Below are positions 32,838 to 38,983 of a stretch of 64,000 bases of DNA, piece after piece (within the stretch, counting starts at the first letter, position 1; every line of letters starts with the position of its first letter). Origin of the DNA: Escherichia coli (GTDB lineage Bacteria > Pseudomonadota > Gammaproteobacteria > Enterobacterales > Enterobacteriaceae); NCBI RefSeq assembly GCF_003334255.1, contig NZ_QOWU01000006.1; one strand, given 5' to 3'. A program made the translations under genes and the position numbers. Below the pieces are notes generated by a model, which searched no databases, was not told the origin of the DNA, and was given only the letters and a program-made list of their open reading frames with translations.

Positions 32838-33749
32838 ATGCGACTATTTAACTGGCGACGTCAGGCGGTGTTAAACGCCATGCCACTGGTCAAACCTGAC
32901 CAGGTGCGTACACCGTGGCATGAATTCTGGCGACGATTTCGCCGTCAGCATATGGCGATGACCGCCGCATTATTCGTTATTTTATTGATTGTGGTGGCCA
33001 TTTTTGCACGCTGGATCGCTCCCTATGACGCCGAAAATTATTTTGATTATGACAATCTGAATAACGGACCTTCTTTGCAGCACTGGTTTGGCGTCGATTC
33101 ACTGGGGCGCGACATTTTCAGCCGTGTCCTGGTTGGTGCGCAAATCTCGCTGGCGGCGGGCGTGTTTGCCGTGTTTATCGGTGCGGCGATCGGGACGTTG
33201 CTGGGCTTGTTGGCTGGATATTATGAAGGCTGGTGGGATCGGTTGATCATGCGCATTTGCGATGTGCTGTTTGCCTTCCCGGGTATTTTACTGGCGATCG
33301 CTGTTGTTGCGGTGTTGGGAAGCGGCATTGCTAACGTGATTATCGCAGTCGCCATTTTTTCCATCCCCGCGTTTGCCCGACTGGTGCGCGGCAACACGCT
33401 GGTGTTGAAACAGCAAACCTTTATTGAGTCAGCACGCAGTATTGGTGCCAGCGATATGACCATTTTATTGCGTCATATCTTGCCTGGGACCGTCTCGTCT
33501 ATCGTGGTGTTTTTCACCATGCGCATTGGCACCTCGATTATCTCTGCCGCCAGCCTGTCATTTCTCGGCCTCGGTGCGCAGCCGCCGACACCAGAGTGGG
33601 GAGCAATGCTCAATGAGGCACGAGCGGATATGGTTATCGCGCCGCATGTCGCTGTTTTTCCGGCCCTGGCTATTTTTCTGACCGTACTGGCGTTCAATTT
33701 GTTGGGCGATGGTTTACGCGATGCGCTGGATCCGAAAATTAAAGGATAG
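32838..33749 (+). CDS. gsiD: Glutathione ABC transporter permease GsiD
   Basis: 303 aa; DppC/OppC-like permease; 2-nt gap after gsiC. Confidence 0.93.
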
Positions 33750-33926
33750 TTACGTTTGAATATTGCTTGAAAGGGTAATCACCTCACAGGAAATTATTGC
33801 CCTAAGCAAGTGTTGTAACTTTCTGCTGATTTTGTAGAATCGGGTAATTTGGTTAAAAAGCCGCAGCAAGGGACTATTTTTGCAGCGGCACAGCGTTCAG
33901 ATAGTTATTTTGTTAAATGTATTAAC

Positions 33927-36275
33927 ATGCTGAGTTTATACGAAAAGATAAAGATAAGGCTGATAATTTTATTTTTATTGGCAGCACTGTCATTTATTGG
34001 TCTTTTTTTCATCATTAACTATCAACTGGTATCGGAACGCGCGGTAAAACGTGCCGATAGCCGCTTTGAACTTATTCAGAAAAACGTTGGCTATTTCTTT
34101 AAAGATATTGAACGTTCGGCCCTGACATTAAAGGACTCACTGTATTTATTAAAAAATACAGAGGAGATTCAACGCGCCGTGATTCTGAAAATGGAAATGA
34201 TGCCATTTTTAGACTCGGTGGGACTGGTACTTGATGATAATAAATATTATCTCTTTTCACGGAGGGCGAATGATAAAATCGTTGTTTATCATCAGGAACA
34301 AGTAAATGGACCGCTTGTCGACGAGTCAGGGCGGGTTATTTTTGCCGATTTTAACCCATCGAAACGACCGTGGTCGGTGGCTTCAGATGACTCTAACAAC
34401 AGCTGGAATCCGGCATACAATTGCTTTGATCGTCCGGGTAAAAAATGTATCTCTTTTACGCTACGTATCAACGGCAAAGATCACGATTTGTTAGCGGTAG
34501 ATAAAATTCATGTCGATTTAAACTGGCGGTATCTGAACGAGTATCTTGATCAAATCAGCGCTAATGATGAAGTTCTATTTTTGAAACAAGGTCATGAGAT
34601 CATTGCCAAGAATCAACGCGCTCGTGAAAAACTGATTATTTATAATAGCGAAGGTAATTATAATATTATTGATTCTGTCGATACGGAGTATATTGCAAAG
34701 ACATCAGCAGTGCCAAATAATGCATTGTTCGAAATCTATTTTTATTATCCTGGCGGTAATTTATTGAACGCATCAGATAAACTTTTTTATCTACCGTTTG
34801 CGTTCATTATTATCGTGTTGCTGGTGGTATATTTCATGACCACTCGTGTGTTCCGTCGGCAATTTTCTGAAATGACCGAGCTGGTTAATACGCTGGCGTT
34901 TTTGCCCGACTCAACGGATCAGATCGAGGCTCTGAAAATTCGCGAAGGCGATGCGAAAGAGATTATCAGCATCAAAAATTCGATCGCGGAAATGAAAGAT
35001 GCCGAAATTGAACGGTCAAATAAATTGCTCTCACTGATCTCTTACGATCAGGAAAGCGGTTTTATTAAAAATATGGCGATTATTGAGTCCAACAATAATC
35101 AGTATCTGGCTGTGGGGATCATCAAACTGTGTGGTCTGGAAGCCGTGGAAGCGGTGTTTGGTGTTGATGAACGCAATAAAATCGTCAGGAAATTGTGTCA
35201 GCGAATTGCCGAGAAATATGCGCAATGCTGCGATATCGTGACATTCAATGCCGATCTCTATTTACTTCTGTGTCGGGAAAATGTACAGACATTTACCCGT
35301 AAAATAGCGATGGTAAACGATTTTGACAGCAGCTTTGGCTACCGCAATCTGCGCATCCATAAGTCTGCCATTTGTGAACCTTTGCAGGGGGAAAACGCCT
35401 GGAGTTACGCAGAAAAACTGAAACTGGCGATTTCCAGTATCCGTGACCATATGTTCTCCGAGTTTATTTTCTGTGATGACGCGAAACTCAACGAAATAGA
35501 AGAGAATATCTGGATTGCGCGTAATATTCGCCATGCAATGGAAATTGGCGAACTATTCCTCGTCTATCAACCGATCGTTGATATTAACACCCGCGCCATT
35601 CTGGGCGCGGAGGCGTTGTGCCGTTGGGTTTCTGCGGAGCGGGGGATCATTTCACCGCTGAAGTTCATTACCATTGCTGAAGATATCGGGTTTATCAATG
35701 AGCTGGGTTATCAGATTATTAAAACGGCAATGGGTGAATTCAGACATTTTAGTCAGCGTGCGTCGCTGAAGGATGATTTCTTACTGCATATTAATGTTTC
35801 GCCCTGGCAGTTAAACGAACCGCACTTTCATGAGCGTTTTACCACCATCATGAAAGAAAATGGCCTGAAGGCGAACAGCCTCTGTGTTGAGATCACTGAA
35901 ACCGTGATAGAGCGAATTAATGAACATTTTTATCTCAATATTGAACAACTGCGTAAACAAGGGGTACGGATATCGATTGATGACTTTGGCACCGGTTTGT
36001 CAAACCTGAAACGTTTTTATGAAATTAATCCAGACAGCATAAAGGTGGACTCGCAATTTACCGGCGATATTTTCGGTACTGCGGGAAAAATTGTGCGCAT
36101 TATTTTCGATCTGGCACGCTATAACCGGATCCCGGTGATTGCGGAAGGCGTAGAGAGCGAAGACGTTGCGCGCGAATTAATTAAATTAGGATGTGTTCAG
36201 GCTCAGGGGTATCTGTACCAGAAACCCATGCCATTCTCCGCCTGGGATAAAAGTGGAAAATTAGTTAAAGAGTAG
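33927..36275 (+). CDS. pdeI: Membrane-anchored c-di-GMP phosphodiesterase PdeI (YliE; EAL domain)
   Basis: 782-aa product from ATG 33927 ([12 protein letters not shown]...); two TM segments flanking a large periplasmic region; C-terminal EAL domain (EALCRW...). Sequence is visibly AT-rich. Confidence 0.88.
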
Positions 36276-36282
36276 TTTACGT

Positions 36283-37611
36283 ATGTCCAGAATCAATAAG
36301 TTCGTACTTACAGTCAGTCTGCTGATTTTTATCATGATTTCAGCAGTTGCCTGCGGGATCTACACTCAAATGGTAAAGGAACGGGTGTATAGCCTGAAAC
36401 AGTCCGTTATTGATACTGCTTTTGCGGTGGCAAATATTGCTGAATATCGGCGTAGCGTGGCAATTGATCTTATCAACACGCTAAATCCCACGGAGGAACA
36501 GCTGTTGGTTGGTTTGCGCACAGCTTACGCCGACTCGGTTTCCCCCTCTTATTTGTACGATGTCGGTCCTTATCTGATTTCCAGTGACGAATGTATTCAG
36601 GTAAAGGAGTTCGAGAAAAATTATTGTGCAGATATTATGCAGGTTGTGAAGTATCGACATGTCAAAAATACAGGGTTTATCTCTTTTGACGGTAAAACCT
36701 TCGTCTATTACCTCTATCCGGTAACTCACAATCGTAGTCTGATATTTTTGCTTGGTCTGGAGCGTTTTTCTTTACTGTCAAAATCGCTGGTGATGGACAG
36801 CGAGAACCTGATGTTCTCTCTATTTAAGAACGGTAAACCGGTGACCGGTGATGAATATTATGCTAAAAACGCCATCTTCACCGTTTCGGAAGCGATGGAG
36901 CACTTCGCCTATTTGCCGACCGGATTGTACGTATTTGCGTATAAAAAAGATGTTTATTTGCGGGTCTGTACATTGATTATTTTCTTTGCCGCATTGGTGG
37001 CAGTGATATCGGGTACCAGTTGCCTCTATCTGGTACGCAGAGTGATTAATCGTGGTATTGTGGAGAAAGAAGCCATCATTAATAACCATTTTGAACGCGT
37101 ACTGGATGGCGGGCTTTTCTTTTCGGCTGCCGATGTCAAAAAACTCTACAGTATGTATAACTCGGCGTTCCTGGACGACCTGACCAAAGCAATGGGCAGA
37201 AAATCCTTTGACGAAGATTTAAAAGCGCTGCCGGAAAAAGGCGGTTATTTGTGCCTGTTTGACGTCGATAAATTCAAAAACATTAACGACACCTTCGGTC
37301 ATTTGCTGGGCGATGAAGTGTTGATGAAAGTGGTGAAAATCCTTAAATCACAGATCCCGGTAGATAAAGGTAAAATCTACCGCTTCGGCGGTGACGAATT
37401 TGCGGTGATTTATACGGGTGGAACGCTGGAAGAGTTGCTATCGATTCTAAAAGAAATCGTTCATTTCCAGGTGGGAAGCATTAATTTAAGTACCAGTATC
37501 GGTGTAGCGCATTCAAATGAATGTACCACCGTCGAACGCTTGAAAATGCTGGCGGATGAGCGGCTGTATAAGAGTAAGAAAAACGGCAGGGCTCAGATTA
37601 GCTGGCAGTAA
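36283..37611 (+). CDS. dgcI: Membrane-anchored diguanylate cyclase DgcI (YliF; GGDEF domain)
   Basis: 442 aa; N-terminal TM/periplasmic sensor region, C-terminal GGDEF active site RFGGDEF; 7-nt gap after pdeI. Confidence 0.92.
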
Positions 37612-37657
37612 TCATTATTCGCAGGCCGGACAAATGATTTTGCCCGGCCTGAATTAA

Positions 37658-38983
37658 TTAAACCCGGCTACCCCACAAATCGTACTCATCGGCGTGCTCG
37701 ACTTTCACACGCAGGATATCACCCGGCTTAACGTTGGTTTCACCATTGAGATAAACCGCGCCGTCGATTTCCGGTGCATCTGCCATGCTGCGACCAATCG
37801 CGCCTTCTTCGTCCACTTCGTCGATAATCACCAGAATTTCACGGCCCACTTTCTCTTGCAGGCGCTCGGCGGAAATCTGCTGCTGCAGCTGCATGAAACG
37901 GTTCCAGCGTTCTTCTTTAACTTCTTCCGGAACCTGGTCAGGCAGGGCATTGGCGTCTGCACCTTCAACCGGGCTGTATTTAAAGCAGCCAACGCGATCC
38001 AGACGCGCTTCTTTCAGGAAGTCGAGTAGCATCTGGAAATCTTCTTCTGTCTCGCCAGGGAAGCCGACAATAAAGGTTGAGCGTAGGGTCAGTTCCGGGC
38101 AGATTTCGCGCCACTGTTTGATGCGCGCCAGTTGGCGATCTACAGAACCCGGACGCTTCATCAGTTTGAGAATGCGCGGGCTGGCGTGCTGCAACGGAAT
38201 GTCCAGATACGGCAGGATTTTGCCTTCTGCCATCAGTGGGATGACGTCGTCCACATGCGGATAAGGGTAAACGTAGTGCAGACGTGTCCAGATCCCCAGT
38301 TTCGATAACTGTTCGCACAGGCTGACCATGCTGGTTTTTACCGGCTCGCCGTTGTGGAAGCCAGTACGATGTTTAACATCAACGCCATAGGCGGAAGTAT
38401 CCTGCGAGATCACCAGAATCTCTTTAACGCCCGCATCTACCAGACGTTTCGCTTCACTTAACACTTCGCCAATCGGACGGCTCACCAGGTCGCCGCGCAT
38501 AGACGGAATAATGCAGAAGGTGCAGCGGTGATTACAGCCTTCCGAAATTTTCAGATAGGCATAATGACGCGGCGTCAGTTTCACACCTTGTTCTGGCACC
38601 AGGCTCAGGAATGGGTTGTGTTTCGGTTTTGGCACGTAGTGATGAACGTGCTCCAGAACCTGCTCATAGCTATGAGGCCCGGTGATTTCCAGCACTTTCG
38701 GGTGGACTTCGCGGATCTGATCTTCTTTTGCCCCCAGACAACCGGTCACAATTACCTTGCCGTTTTCATTCAACGCTTCACCAATGGCTTCCAGTGATTC
38801 TTGTACCGCGCTGTCAATAAAGCCGCAGGTGTTGACGATCACCATGTCCGCATCGTCATAGCTCGGTACCACGTCATAACCTTCAGTGCGTAGTTCGGTG
38901 AGAATACGCTCTGAATCGACAAGGTTTTTCGGACAGCCAAGGGAAACAAAGCCGATTTTCGGCTGGGGAGTTACTTTGCTCAT
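37658..38983 (-). CDS. rimO: Ribosomal protein S12 methylthiotransferase RimO (radical SAM MTTase)
   Basis: 441 aa; radical-SAM CX3CX2C (CNHRCTFC) and N-terminal MTTase Cys triad. Confidence 0.95.

Follow-up and report, generated by a model that had tools for sequence, protein, structure and literature searches.

The pdeI-dgcI locus of Escherichia coli as a genus-specific member of a small family of AT-rich EAL-then-GGDEF cassettes

Why a phosphodiesterase and a diguanylate cyclase should stand side by side in an AT-rich part of the Escherichia coli chromosome is the question raised by the pdeI-dgcI locus. We analysed a 64,000-nt stretch of the E. coli chromosome (the window), in which the plus strand carries pdeI (yliE, b0833; c-di-GMP phosphodiesterase) at 33927-36275, starting at ATG 33927 and comprising 782 codons for 782 aa, followed by dgcI (yliF, b0834; diguanylate cyclase) at 36283-37611, with its ATG at 36283 and 442 codons for 442 aa. 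An earlier note made from the letters had named these two genes and placed them 7 nt apart. Both points hold: the same open reading frames bear these names in the RefSeq annotation of all 5426 complete E. coli genomes, and the spacer between the pdeI stop codon TAG and the dgcI ATG occupies exactly the 7 nt at 36276-36282 of the plus strand. The pair is 100% identical to that of strain G1/2 and 98.8% identical to that of K-12. Compared gene by gene with K-12, pdeI and dgcI show 98.4% and 99.2% nucleotide identity and 99.5% and 98.9% protein identity, the neighbours are gsiD and rimO in both genomes, and the differences are allelic only. The segment 33927-37611 is the already annotated pdeI–dgcI (yliE-yliF) locus, and its identification adds little beyond that; the genes, their domains and the bcs-linked paralogs were all previously published. 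PdeI and DgcI are among the least understood of the 29 GGDEF/EAL proteins of E. coli, and the analysis contributes context for them, leaving knowledge of c-di-GMP signalling as it was.

The AT-richness that the earlier note had judged by eye against the flanking gsi operon and rimO is confirmed by measurement. Sliding-window GC is 0.40-0.44 over 33.5-37.5 kb, whereas the gsi operon stands at 0.51-0.56 and rimO at 0.52-0.53, and the low-GC insert (33750-37657, unstranded) runs from the gsiD stop to the rimO stop, taking in the whole cassette and both flanking spacers. The GC values of pdeI (0.418) and dgcI (0.435) are the lowest of the 51 long ORFs in the window; the other 49 have a mean of 0.524 (sd 0.026, minimum 0.451), which places the two genes at z = -4.1 and -3.4, respectively. 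The deficit is present at all three codon positions, with GC2 at 0.31-0.32 and GC3 at 0.45 and 0.51, the lowest and fourth lowest among the 51 ORFs. Part of this composition belongs to the proteins, as indicated by the low and constant GC2 together with the enrichment of F, Y, M, I, N and K, which make up 33-35% of PdeI and DgcI residues compared with 22-25% in GsiD and RimO. Codon usage gave a divided answer. When the window's own ORFs served, leave-one-out, as the reference for a codon adaptation index, neither pdeI nor dgcI was an outlier (z = -0.4 and -0.8), while the pair uses the rare codons AGA, AGG, ATA and CTA about 2.4 times as often. GC sets the two genes apart from their neighbours, and atypical codon usage is seen only through GC3 and the rare codons, not through the index. 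A scaled chi-square of synonymous usage was dropped as dependent on gene length and uninformative.

The insert lies at a convergent junction, dgcI and rimO facing each other across 46 nt. Among 80 non-coli Enterobacterales species loci with gsiD, the pair was found once, in E. albertii; 43 sites were empty (gsiD and rimO less than 500 bp apart), 17 held unrelated cargo and 19 were rearranged. The empty junctions come from Citrobacter, Salmonella, Enterobacter, Klebsiella, Kluyvera and others, and REP-like palindromes are found in empty sites. E. fergusonii, shown apart from this survey, carries pdeI-dgcI at the same site, and a PdeI fragment of 88% identity has an E. marmotae source name. Far from being universally conserved in the Enterobacteriaceae, the pair sits between gsiD and rimO only in Escherichia species. 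Within E. coli it is core, with at least 80% of the region present in 5381 of 5426 complete genomes (99.2%). The E. coli and E. fergusonii copies examined have both ORFs intact; the type strain of E. albertii has a frameshift in pdeI, and Shigella records include truncated forms. The description of the segment as fast-evolving is right relative to the gsi neighbours, whose dN is exceeded 2-4 times and whose population diversity is also lower, but the ratio dN/dS is only about 0.05-0.07 (E. coli-E. albertii and E. coli-E. fergusonii), indicating purifying selection. These findings support an ancient, genus-specific acquisition that E. coli shares with E. albertii and E. fergusonii.

Outside this site, a cassette with the EAL gene first and the GGDEF gene second recurs in at least six lineages at 34-43% identity, its order and orientation constant in all contexts examined. 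The homologous cassettes encode proteins of 772-782 and 442-448 aa, with a junction of -11 to +9 nt in the pairs measured. Mobile members have a GC of 0.32-0.35, lie on plasmids or islands and keep the catalytic residues invariant. A cassette precedes bcsABC on an E. ruysiae island and bcsA-bcsB-bcsC on an IncHI1B plasmid; other copies lie on a raffinose plasmid or are flanked by IS1, IS3 and IS21 elements. Directly downstream bcs genes, which are accessory cellulose synthase genes, occur in only two of five informative mobile contexts. A DgcI paralog below 60% identity occurs on 98 PLSDB plasmids (34-41% among the matches listed). An exhaustive profile search with GAPES2, the periplasmic domain of DgcI, against 1.84 billion cluster representatives returned only 41 matches, mostly fragments, with no relative, and hence no donor, outside the Escherichia/plasmid family. 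A word-index search with the PdeI N-terminus returned Escherichia fragments only, and two further family members, divergent but full-length, were found on contigs of about 1.5 kb that offer no gene context. Across the family GC3 rises from 0.28-0.31 in mobile copies through 0.37-0.51 in Escherichia copies to about 0.59 in the neighbouring genes, and GC2 is about 0.31-0.33 in mobile and Escherichia copies alike. The third codon positions of the Escherichia copies have drifted part-way to host composition, with the AT-coded amino-acid make-up unchanged. We infer the direction of transfer between chromosome and plasmids from base composition alone.

The suggestion that the module was horizontally acquired is upheld by its absence from the gsiD-rimO junction in 79 of the 80 non-coli loci, by the near confinement of GAPES2 to Escherichia and plasmids, and by the greater AT-richness of the mobile paralogs. 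Composition and patchy distribution support a horizontally acquired islet, and hallmarks of mobility are lacking at the site, with no flanking direct or inverted repeats bracketing the cassette and no mobility gene between gsiD and rimO. An ancestor of Escherichia gained the cassette at the convergent gsiD/rimO junction, and vertical inheritance under purifying selection followed.

Both proteins have the membrane-anchored architecture with a large periplasmic sensor that had been read from their translations, as Pfam matches and two hydropathy-defined membrane segments in each attest. PdeI is ordered as membrane segment, periplasmic sensor, membrane segment, linker, degenerate GGDEF and EAL. 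Its membrane segments (residues ~7-36 and 282-310) flank a loop of about 245 residues, the first part of which is a CHASE9 segment (residues 35-150; 34029-34376, plus strand) that matches positions 1-116 of the 116-position profile PF17153 with E = 2e-62. The degenerate GGDEF (approximately residues 366-525; 35022-35501, plus strand) has its signature motif replaced by LYLLLCREN, and the EAL domain (PF00563, E = 2e-69) spans residues 532-767 (35520-36227, plus strand). The EAL residues E562-A-L-C-R566, N623, E655-I-T-E658 (E655/T657/E658), D685/D686, K706, E740-G-V-E743 and Q760, which serve metal binding, substrate binding and catalysis, do not vary across five lineages, in agreement with the published entry for YliE (EALR / QRDD / TE / ENEEDKEQ; PMC3484386). 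By this full residue set PdeI is predicted to be a catalytically competent phosphodiesterase. Overexpression of pdeI confers resistance to phage N4, as with other active phosphodiesterases (PMC7553319), and a yliE insertion has been reported to alter expression of type 1 fimbriae.

DgcI runs from a membrane segment through periplasmic GAPES2, a second membrane segment and a linker to GGDEF. Its membrane segments (~4-31 and 223-251) flank a loop of about 190 residues holding GAPES2 (residues 26-229; 36358-36969, plus strand; PF17156, E = 2e-141, profile positions 1-204 of 204), and the catalytic GGDEF domain (PF00990, E = 1e-24) spans residues 295-437 (37165-37593, plus strand). The motif R367-F-G-G-D-E-F373 and the metal- and GTP-binding residues (D327/D329, N335, D344, K432 and R436) are invariant in six sequences, and on these residues DgcI would qualify as an active diguanylate cyclase. 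No trace of an RxxD inhibitory site was found upstream of the DgcI GGDEF, where the sequence reads DKGKIYRF. This allosteric site, five residues upstream of GGDEF, is common in the GGDEF family and does not define it. A published table gives the YliF motif as KNDHDRGGDEF and lists its I site as 'GE' (PMC3484386).

The predicted folds of both periplasmic domains are dCache-like, at medium confidence (mean pLDDT about 73, from 5-6 sequences). We took as dCache, or tandem PDC, a pair of PAS-like alpha/beta modules preceded by a long N-terminal helix, together with structural similarity; the models resemble the structures of the extracellular dCache ligand-binding domains of chemoreceptors and histidine kinases (McpU, PctA, CqsR, KinD and Tlp3), at a sequence identity of 8-15%, and Pfam dCache families found no match in PdeI or DgcI. 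Homology of the two periplasmic domains to one another was rejected (hhalign probability 0.4%), and since they lack mutual sequence similarity, a shared ligand is not indicated. The ligand-gated switching proposed earlier is plausible as a push-pull arrangement, given two seemingly intact enzymes with modelled dCache-like sensors.

With regard to transcription, a candidate sigma-70 promoter of the cassette lies at 33813-33840 on the plus strand, about 87 nt upstream of the pdeI ATG (TTGTAA, 16 nt, TAGAAT; 9 of 12 consensus positions), in a block that is conserved among E. coli, E. albertii and E. fergusonii within an otherwise divergent spacer. Scanning the last 1.5 kb of pdeI and the pdeI/dgcI junction revealed nothing promoter-like or terminator-like, and the Shine-Dalgarno-like sequence of dgcI is weak. 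In strain CFT073 at 37 C versus 23 C, the log2 fold changes are +2.9 for pdeI and +1.4 for dgcI, with gsiD and rimO at about +0.15, and both genes of the pair rise with BolA. Co-transcription, as the earlier note had it, is supported indirectly by the tight junction in every lineage, the clean 3' part of pdeI and the joint induction at 37 C. In-vitro binding peaks of sigma-54 and sigma-28 holoenzymes reported by gSELEX at the pdeI/dgcI junction suggest that dgcI may also have its own promoter. DgcI is one of only four GGDEF/EAL proteins undetectable in K-12, and PdeI is not among these four, which argues against equal co-production. A sigma-54 promoter for dgcI was considered and set aside as improbable. 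Its only good match, TGGCACCGGTTTGTCA at 35987, encodes the conserved EAL motif DDFGTGLS some 300 nt ahead of dgcI and is probably coincidental. Between dgcI and rimO a GC-rich hairpin (37622-37651, unstranded; inverted repeat I23; -20.3 kcal/mol, z = -4.1 versus shuffles) may be a shared transcript-end structure of the two genes; no T-run follows it on either strand, and it went uncalled in the terminator scan. Another hairpin, terminator-like and on the minus strand (33860-33889), was considered as a relic of the ancestral rimO terminator and rejected, since neither E. albertii nor E. fergusonii conserves it.

We consider it likely that pdeI-dgcI belongs to a small family of AT-rich EAL-then-GGDEF cassettes, acquired by Escherichia, and acts as a co-expressed push-pull source and sink of c-di-GMP. 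One promoter upstream of pdeI would drive both genes as a unit, with weak expression in the laboratory and induction at 37 C. The products would be two inner-membrane enzymes, each with its own, sequence-unrelated, dCache-like periplasmic sensor, DgcI making c-di-GMP and PdeI hydrolysing it, and periplasmic or extracellular cues read by each sensor would set the net output of the module. Two mobile relatives stand directly upstream of accessory bcsA-bcsB-bcsC operons, from which the family would originally have served, in all probability, to control how much c-di-GMP reaches a PilZ-dependent cellulose synthase. If the family did begin in this way, the chromosomal copy of Escherichia would be an orphan.

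A stronger form of the model, which we regard as possible but unlikely, makes PdeI and DgcI the halves of one heteromeric membrane sensor moving as a unit between replicons: the dCache-like domains would touch or share a periplasmic partner, the invariant periplasmic cysteine pairs would add redox control, and the complex would flip net synthesis or hydrolysis of local c-di-GMP for a dedicated effector (BcsA in the mobile copies). At the other extreme, the adjacency may be historical only, each enzyme acting on the general c-di-GMP pool or on its own local target. The unequal detection of the two proteins in K-12, the possible internal sigma-54 and sigma-28 sites and the unrelated sensor sequences fit such independence, as do the separate phenotypes of single-gene mutants, where the yliE insertion affects fimbriae and a yliF deletion in CFT073 is reported to raise adherence. 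We nevertheless judge it distinctly improbable: pdeI and dgcI are induced together and their neighbours are not, and order, orientation and tight junction persist in at least six lineages at 34-43% identity in unrelated contexts, IS-flanked plasmid copies included, which would be hard to account for if the pair were not under selection.

Two further readings concern the origin and fate of the DNA itself. Were the cassette silenced, largely dispensable foreign DNA in decay, its AT-richness would expose it to a xenogeneic silencer, H-NS for example. Reported expression in standard conditions is very low, if any, overproduction of DgcI was toxic, and temperature induction is common to many silenced AT-rich genes; the lesions in E. 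albertii and Shigella, and a slight excess of disruptions (45 E. coli genomes, compared with 4 and 8 for the flanks), also point that way. Decay is difficult to reconcile, however, with a dN/dS of 0.05-0.07 across both species divergences, with the intact ORFs of those E. coli and E. fergusonii copies that were examined, with a region kept in 99.2% of 5426 genomes, with retention of all catalytic residues, and with the reported mutant and overexpression phenotypes, and we give this reading only a slim chance. That the pair is instead ancestral to the Enterobacteriaceae and was lost many times, its AT-richness reflecting the amino-acid needs of membrane and sensor proteins, would agree with the low, constant GC2 and the F, Y, M, I, N and K enrichment, with synonymous codon choice that is no outlier on the local index, and with the lack of mobility scars. 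Against this stand the 43 empty junctions across several genera, the absence of GAPES2 relatives outside the Escherichia/plasmid family among 1.84 billion representatives, a GC3 that is likewise low (the two genes rank first and fourth from the bottom among 51 ORFs), and the existence of plasmid-borne mobile copies with GC3 of about 0.28; we lend it almost no credence. The preferred reading remains that the pair, specific to the genus, is one of a small family of mobile cassettes, was acquired long ago and has since been partly ameliorated. This reading offers hypotheses for the study of PdeI and DgcI: a paired source and sink, dCache-type sensing, possible disulfide control and a link to cellulose.

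Close relatives are the YliE/YliF-like pairs beside the horizontally transferred bcsA2-bcsA4 cellulose clusters (bioRxiv 10.1101/2025.05.09.653004), which share architecture, order and domains with the chromosomal pair at 34-43% full-length identity and keep the catalytic residues. Those bcs-linked pairs lie on plasmids or islands at a GC of 0.32-0.35, often upstream of bcsA-bcsB-bcsC, whereas the chromosomal copy has no adjacent bcs genes and a GC of 0.42-0.44. In its layout of two membrane segments, a periplasmic loop and a C-terminal EAL domain, PdeI also resembles PdeC, PdeB, PdeD, PdeG and PdeN. In these CSS-domain phosphodiesterases a disulfide between a conserved pair of periplasmic cysteines controls activity. 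PdeI differs in carrying CHASE9 and no CSS Pfam domain, plus an extra degenerate GGDEF; its periplasmic part contains two cysteines and no more, C166 and C174, which are invariant, and by analogy redox control through them may be conjectured. DgcI has an invariant pair of its own in the periplasmic domain (C104/C115). As a pair of opposed enzymes, the locus compares with the dosC-dosP (dgcO-pdeO) operon of E. coli. DosC and DosP are cytoplasmic haem-based oxygen sensors with the cyclase gene first, whereas at the pdeI-dgcI locus the phosphodiesterase gene leads and both products are membrane proteins that carry predicted dCache-like sensors in the periplasm.

The window is E. coli chromosome, and its 4-kb segment at 33700-37700 has the same sequence as strain G1/2 (100% identity) and matches K-12 at 98.8%. 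Matches to this segment are present in each of the 5426 complete E. coli genomes; there its ORFs are annotated as pdeI and dgcI, flanked by gsiD and rimO. Separated by exactly 7 nt, the two genes lie on the plus strand and encode proteins of 782 aa (pdeI, 33927-36275) and 442 aa (dgcI, 36283-37611). Pfam places CHASE9 (residues 35-150) and EAL (532-767) in PdeI, and GAPES2 (26-229) and GGDEF (295-437) in DgcI. The earlier note, which had described this pair by eye as an AT-rich segment, was right: windowed GC is 0.40-0.44 over the pair versus 0.51-0.56 over gsiA-D and 0.52-0.53 over rimO. At 0.418 (pdeI) and 0.435 (dgcI), their GC contents are the two lowest among the 51 long ORFs in the window (z = -4.1 and -3.4; mean of the remaining 49, 0.524, sd 0.026). 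GC3 is 0.45 and 0.51, respectively (first and fourth lowest of the 51), GC2 is 0.31-0.32, and F, Y, M, I, N and K account for 33-35% of PdeI and DgcI residues versus 22-25% in GsiD and RimO. The rare codons AGA, AGG, ATA and CTA occur at ~2.4 times their frequency in other window ORFs. A leave-one-out codon adaptation index, with the window's own genes as reference set, did not set the pair apart (z = -0.4 and -0.8). Because the GC deficit extends across all codon positions and this local index is unremarkable, the anomaly is mainly one of base and amino-acid composition, rather than of distinct synonymous codon choice.

To follow the site across species, we collected 80 loci with a GsiD ortholog (77-97% identity) and 10-kb flanks, one genome per GTDB species, and searched each for PdeI, DgcI, RimO and BssR. 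The pair lies 3' of gsiD in one locus, that of E. albertii. The site is empty in 43 of the 80, with convergent rimO at most 500 bp away, so the pair is not universally conserved in the family. These empty sites are found in Citrobacter, Salmonella, Enterobacter, Klebsiella, Kluyvera, Lelliottia and others, and their gaps consist of REP/BIME-like palindromes. In 19 rearranged loci, mostly from Erwiniaceae and Yersiniaceae, rimO is absent from the 10 kb downstream. The remaining 17 hold unrelated cargo before rimO, for example citrate-transducer-like chemoreceptors, sugar-utilisation genes, a sigma-54 activator accompanied by sugar genes, MFS transporters, or alpha-glucosidase with a GPH symporter. 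The convergent gsiD/rimO junction (window 33750-33926 and 37612-37657) is a recurrent insertion site across Enterobacterales (loci L005, L010, L013, L016, L022, L025, L041, L045, L048, L054, L061, L067, L075 and L081 of our gsiD-bearing set). The order gsiC-gsiD-pdeI-dgcI-rimO was also reached on a contig via a 77%-identical DgcI homolog, its proteins being E. fergusonii by exact-sequence look-up, and a PdeI fragment of 88% identity has the source name E. marmotae. The pair therefore occupies the gsiD-rimO site in Escherichia species and nowhere else within this sample.

Further support for acquisition comes from divergent relatives. Among 5.8 billion proteins there are very few full-length GAPES2-GGDEF homologs, and a profile covering the first 293 residues gave only 41 matches, mostly fragments, against all 1.84 billion cluster representatives. 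For every divergent homolog with available context, a PdeI-like EAL gene lies directly 5' in the same orientation. Such cassettes are found in an island adjoining ycaM in E. ruysiae, on Salmonella and E. coli plasmid-type contigs (CcdAB, KfrA) beside a raffinose operon, as IS-flanked copies, and upstream of bcsA-bcsB-bcsC on an IncHI1B plasmid. The measured pairs encode proteins of 772-782 and 442-448 aa with spacers of -11 to +9 nt, and the paralogs are 34-43% identical to the window proteins. A DgcI paralog below 60% identity is present on 98 PLSDB plasmids (34-41% among the matches listed). These contexts agree with the report that YliE and YliF homologs adjoin horizontally transferred bcsA2-4 clusters (bioRxiv 10.1101/2025.05.09.653004). 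In the E. ruysiae locus (L083 11426-21196), the island is inserted 3' of dmsABC-ycaC, beside the ycaM-type permease gene; after the cassette come a second cellulose synthase cluster (bcsA, bcsB, bcsC) and a GAPES3-GGDEF-EAL gene, giving three c-di-GMP turnover genes.

The AT-richness had been taken to suggest either horizontal acquisition or rapid evolution. GC is 0.32-0.35 and GC3 0.28-0.31 in the mobile copies, while GC3 is 0.37-0.51 in Escherichia chromosomal copies versus ~0.59 in host neighbours; GC2 stays within 0.28-0.34 across every copy. The most economical interpretation is that the family is intrinsically AT-rich and that its chromosomal member has partly ameliorated at silent sites. 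We found no direct or inverted repeats bracketing the cassette and no mobility gene inside it, as an old acquisition would lead one to expect. The idea of a horizontal origin is supported, in the sense that a cassette mobile in other settings was anciently acquired at genus level. Rapid evolution holds in relative terms: the pair's rate is 2-4 times that of the gsi genes beside it, with dN versus E. albertii of 0.063 (pdeI) and 0.033 (dgcI) against 0.017 (gsiC), 0.014 (gsiD) and 0.001 (rimO), and identities to E. fergusonii of 69% (PdeI) and 77% (DgcI) against 92% (GsiC) and 87% (GsiD). No single fast-evolving domain stands out within either protein. Over the 5426 genomes, three 4001-nt queries reached at least 99% identity in 31% (cassette region), 55% (gsiA-C) and 79% (rimO-gstB) of genomes, and were at least 80% covered in 5381, 5422 and 5418, respectively. 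Given this coverage of the cassette and dN/dS values of 0.057 (pdeI) and 0.052 (dgcI) versus E. albertii, the pair is a core, selectively maintained locus, neither decaying nor hypervariable.

Some exceptions were seen. About 45 of the 5426 genomes are without most of the cassette; the one examined (hit H20, NZ_CM149861.1) has an IS1 element together with a hypothetical gene in the gsiD-rimO interval. For Shigella flexneri, truncated forms of DgcI are on record. In the E. albertii type strain (L002 9132-9248), pdeI aligns full-length in nucleotides but is one base short; its longest ORF starts at GTG and encodes a 743-aa protein missing the first membrane segment, likely a frameshift pseudogene or an N-terminally truncated form. 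E. fergusonii gsiC/gsiD (L082 1-2596) are 78-80% identical to E. coli in nucleotides, as distant as Citrobacter and Salmonella copies, and the rimO 3' end is 87% identical; this gsi region may have an atypical past, for example one involving recombination.

Several observations favor a single transcription unit. A candidate promoter (TTGTAA-16-TAGAAT, 33813-33840, plus strand), a promoter-like match, is kept in E. coli, E. albertii and E. fergusonii; neither promoter-like nor terminator-like sites were found at the junction or in the final 1.5 kb of pdeI; and a stable hairpin lies between dgcI and convergent rimO. In CFT073 RNA-seq, pdeI and dgcI increase at 37 C relative to 23 C (by 2.9 and 1.4 log2 units) with gsiD and rimO unchanged, and both go up with BolA. 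As caveats, in-vitro genomic SELEX placed peaks for the sigma-54 and sigma-28 holoenzymes at the junction of yliE and yliF, and DgcI belongs to a group of only four GGDEF/EAL proteins that escaped detection in K-12, where dgcI expression is described as very low, if any, and DgcI overproduction is toxic. A near-consensus sigma-54 element, TGGCACCGGTTTGTCA (2 mismatches, 35987-36002), lies inside pdeI ~300 nt 5' of dgcI and encodes the conserved EAL motif DDFGTGLS, so any EAL gene with these codons would have it; this coding origin may bear on the published sigma-54 peak. A hairpin in the pdeI leader (33860-33889) has a T5 run after it on the minus strand and so resembles a terminator of antisense transcription; E. 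coli has it, but its conservation does not extend to E. albertii or E. fergusonii.

The canonical EAL and GGDEF catalytic residues are all present and invariant across divergent lineages, matching the published YliE/YliF residue table (PMC3484386), and DgcI has no RxxD inhibitory site. Overexpression of pdeI confers phage N4 resistance, like other active phosphodiesterases (PMC7553319), and yliF deletion in CFT073 increases adherence, which the cyclase WspR complements. Neither enzyme is a degenerate member of the pair, and putative push-pull switching, proposed earlier as ligand-gated, is plausible.

The genes, domain families and bcs-linked paralogs have all been described previously, and the finding is known biology; the added value is modest and lies in the survey of empty sites, the gradient of amelioration, the evidence that the family is narrow, the modeled dCache-like folds and the invariant cysteine pairs. 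Two strongly hydrophobic segments surround a loop of ~245 residues in PdeI and of ~190 residues in DgcI. AlphaFold2 models from 5-6-sequence alignments (mean pLDDT ~73; ~85-91 for the PdeI periplasmic part) predict dCache-like periplasmic domains, and no sequence relationship was found between those of PdeI and DgcI. Each loop has exactly two cysteines, invariant in all lineages: C166/C174 in PdeI, inside the motif YNC-x7-C, and C104/C115 in DgcI. Disulfide control of the pair would, by analogy, be a lead rather than a result: CSS-domain phosphodiesterases are under disulfide control via their cysteines, and the invariant pattern in PdeI and DgcI is reminiscent of these enzymes.
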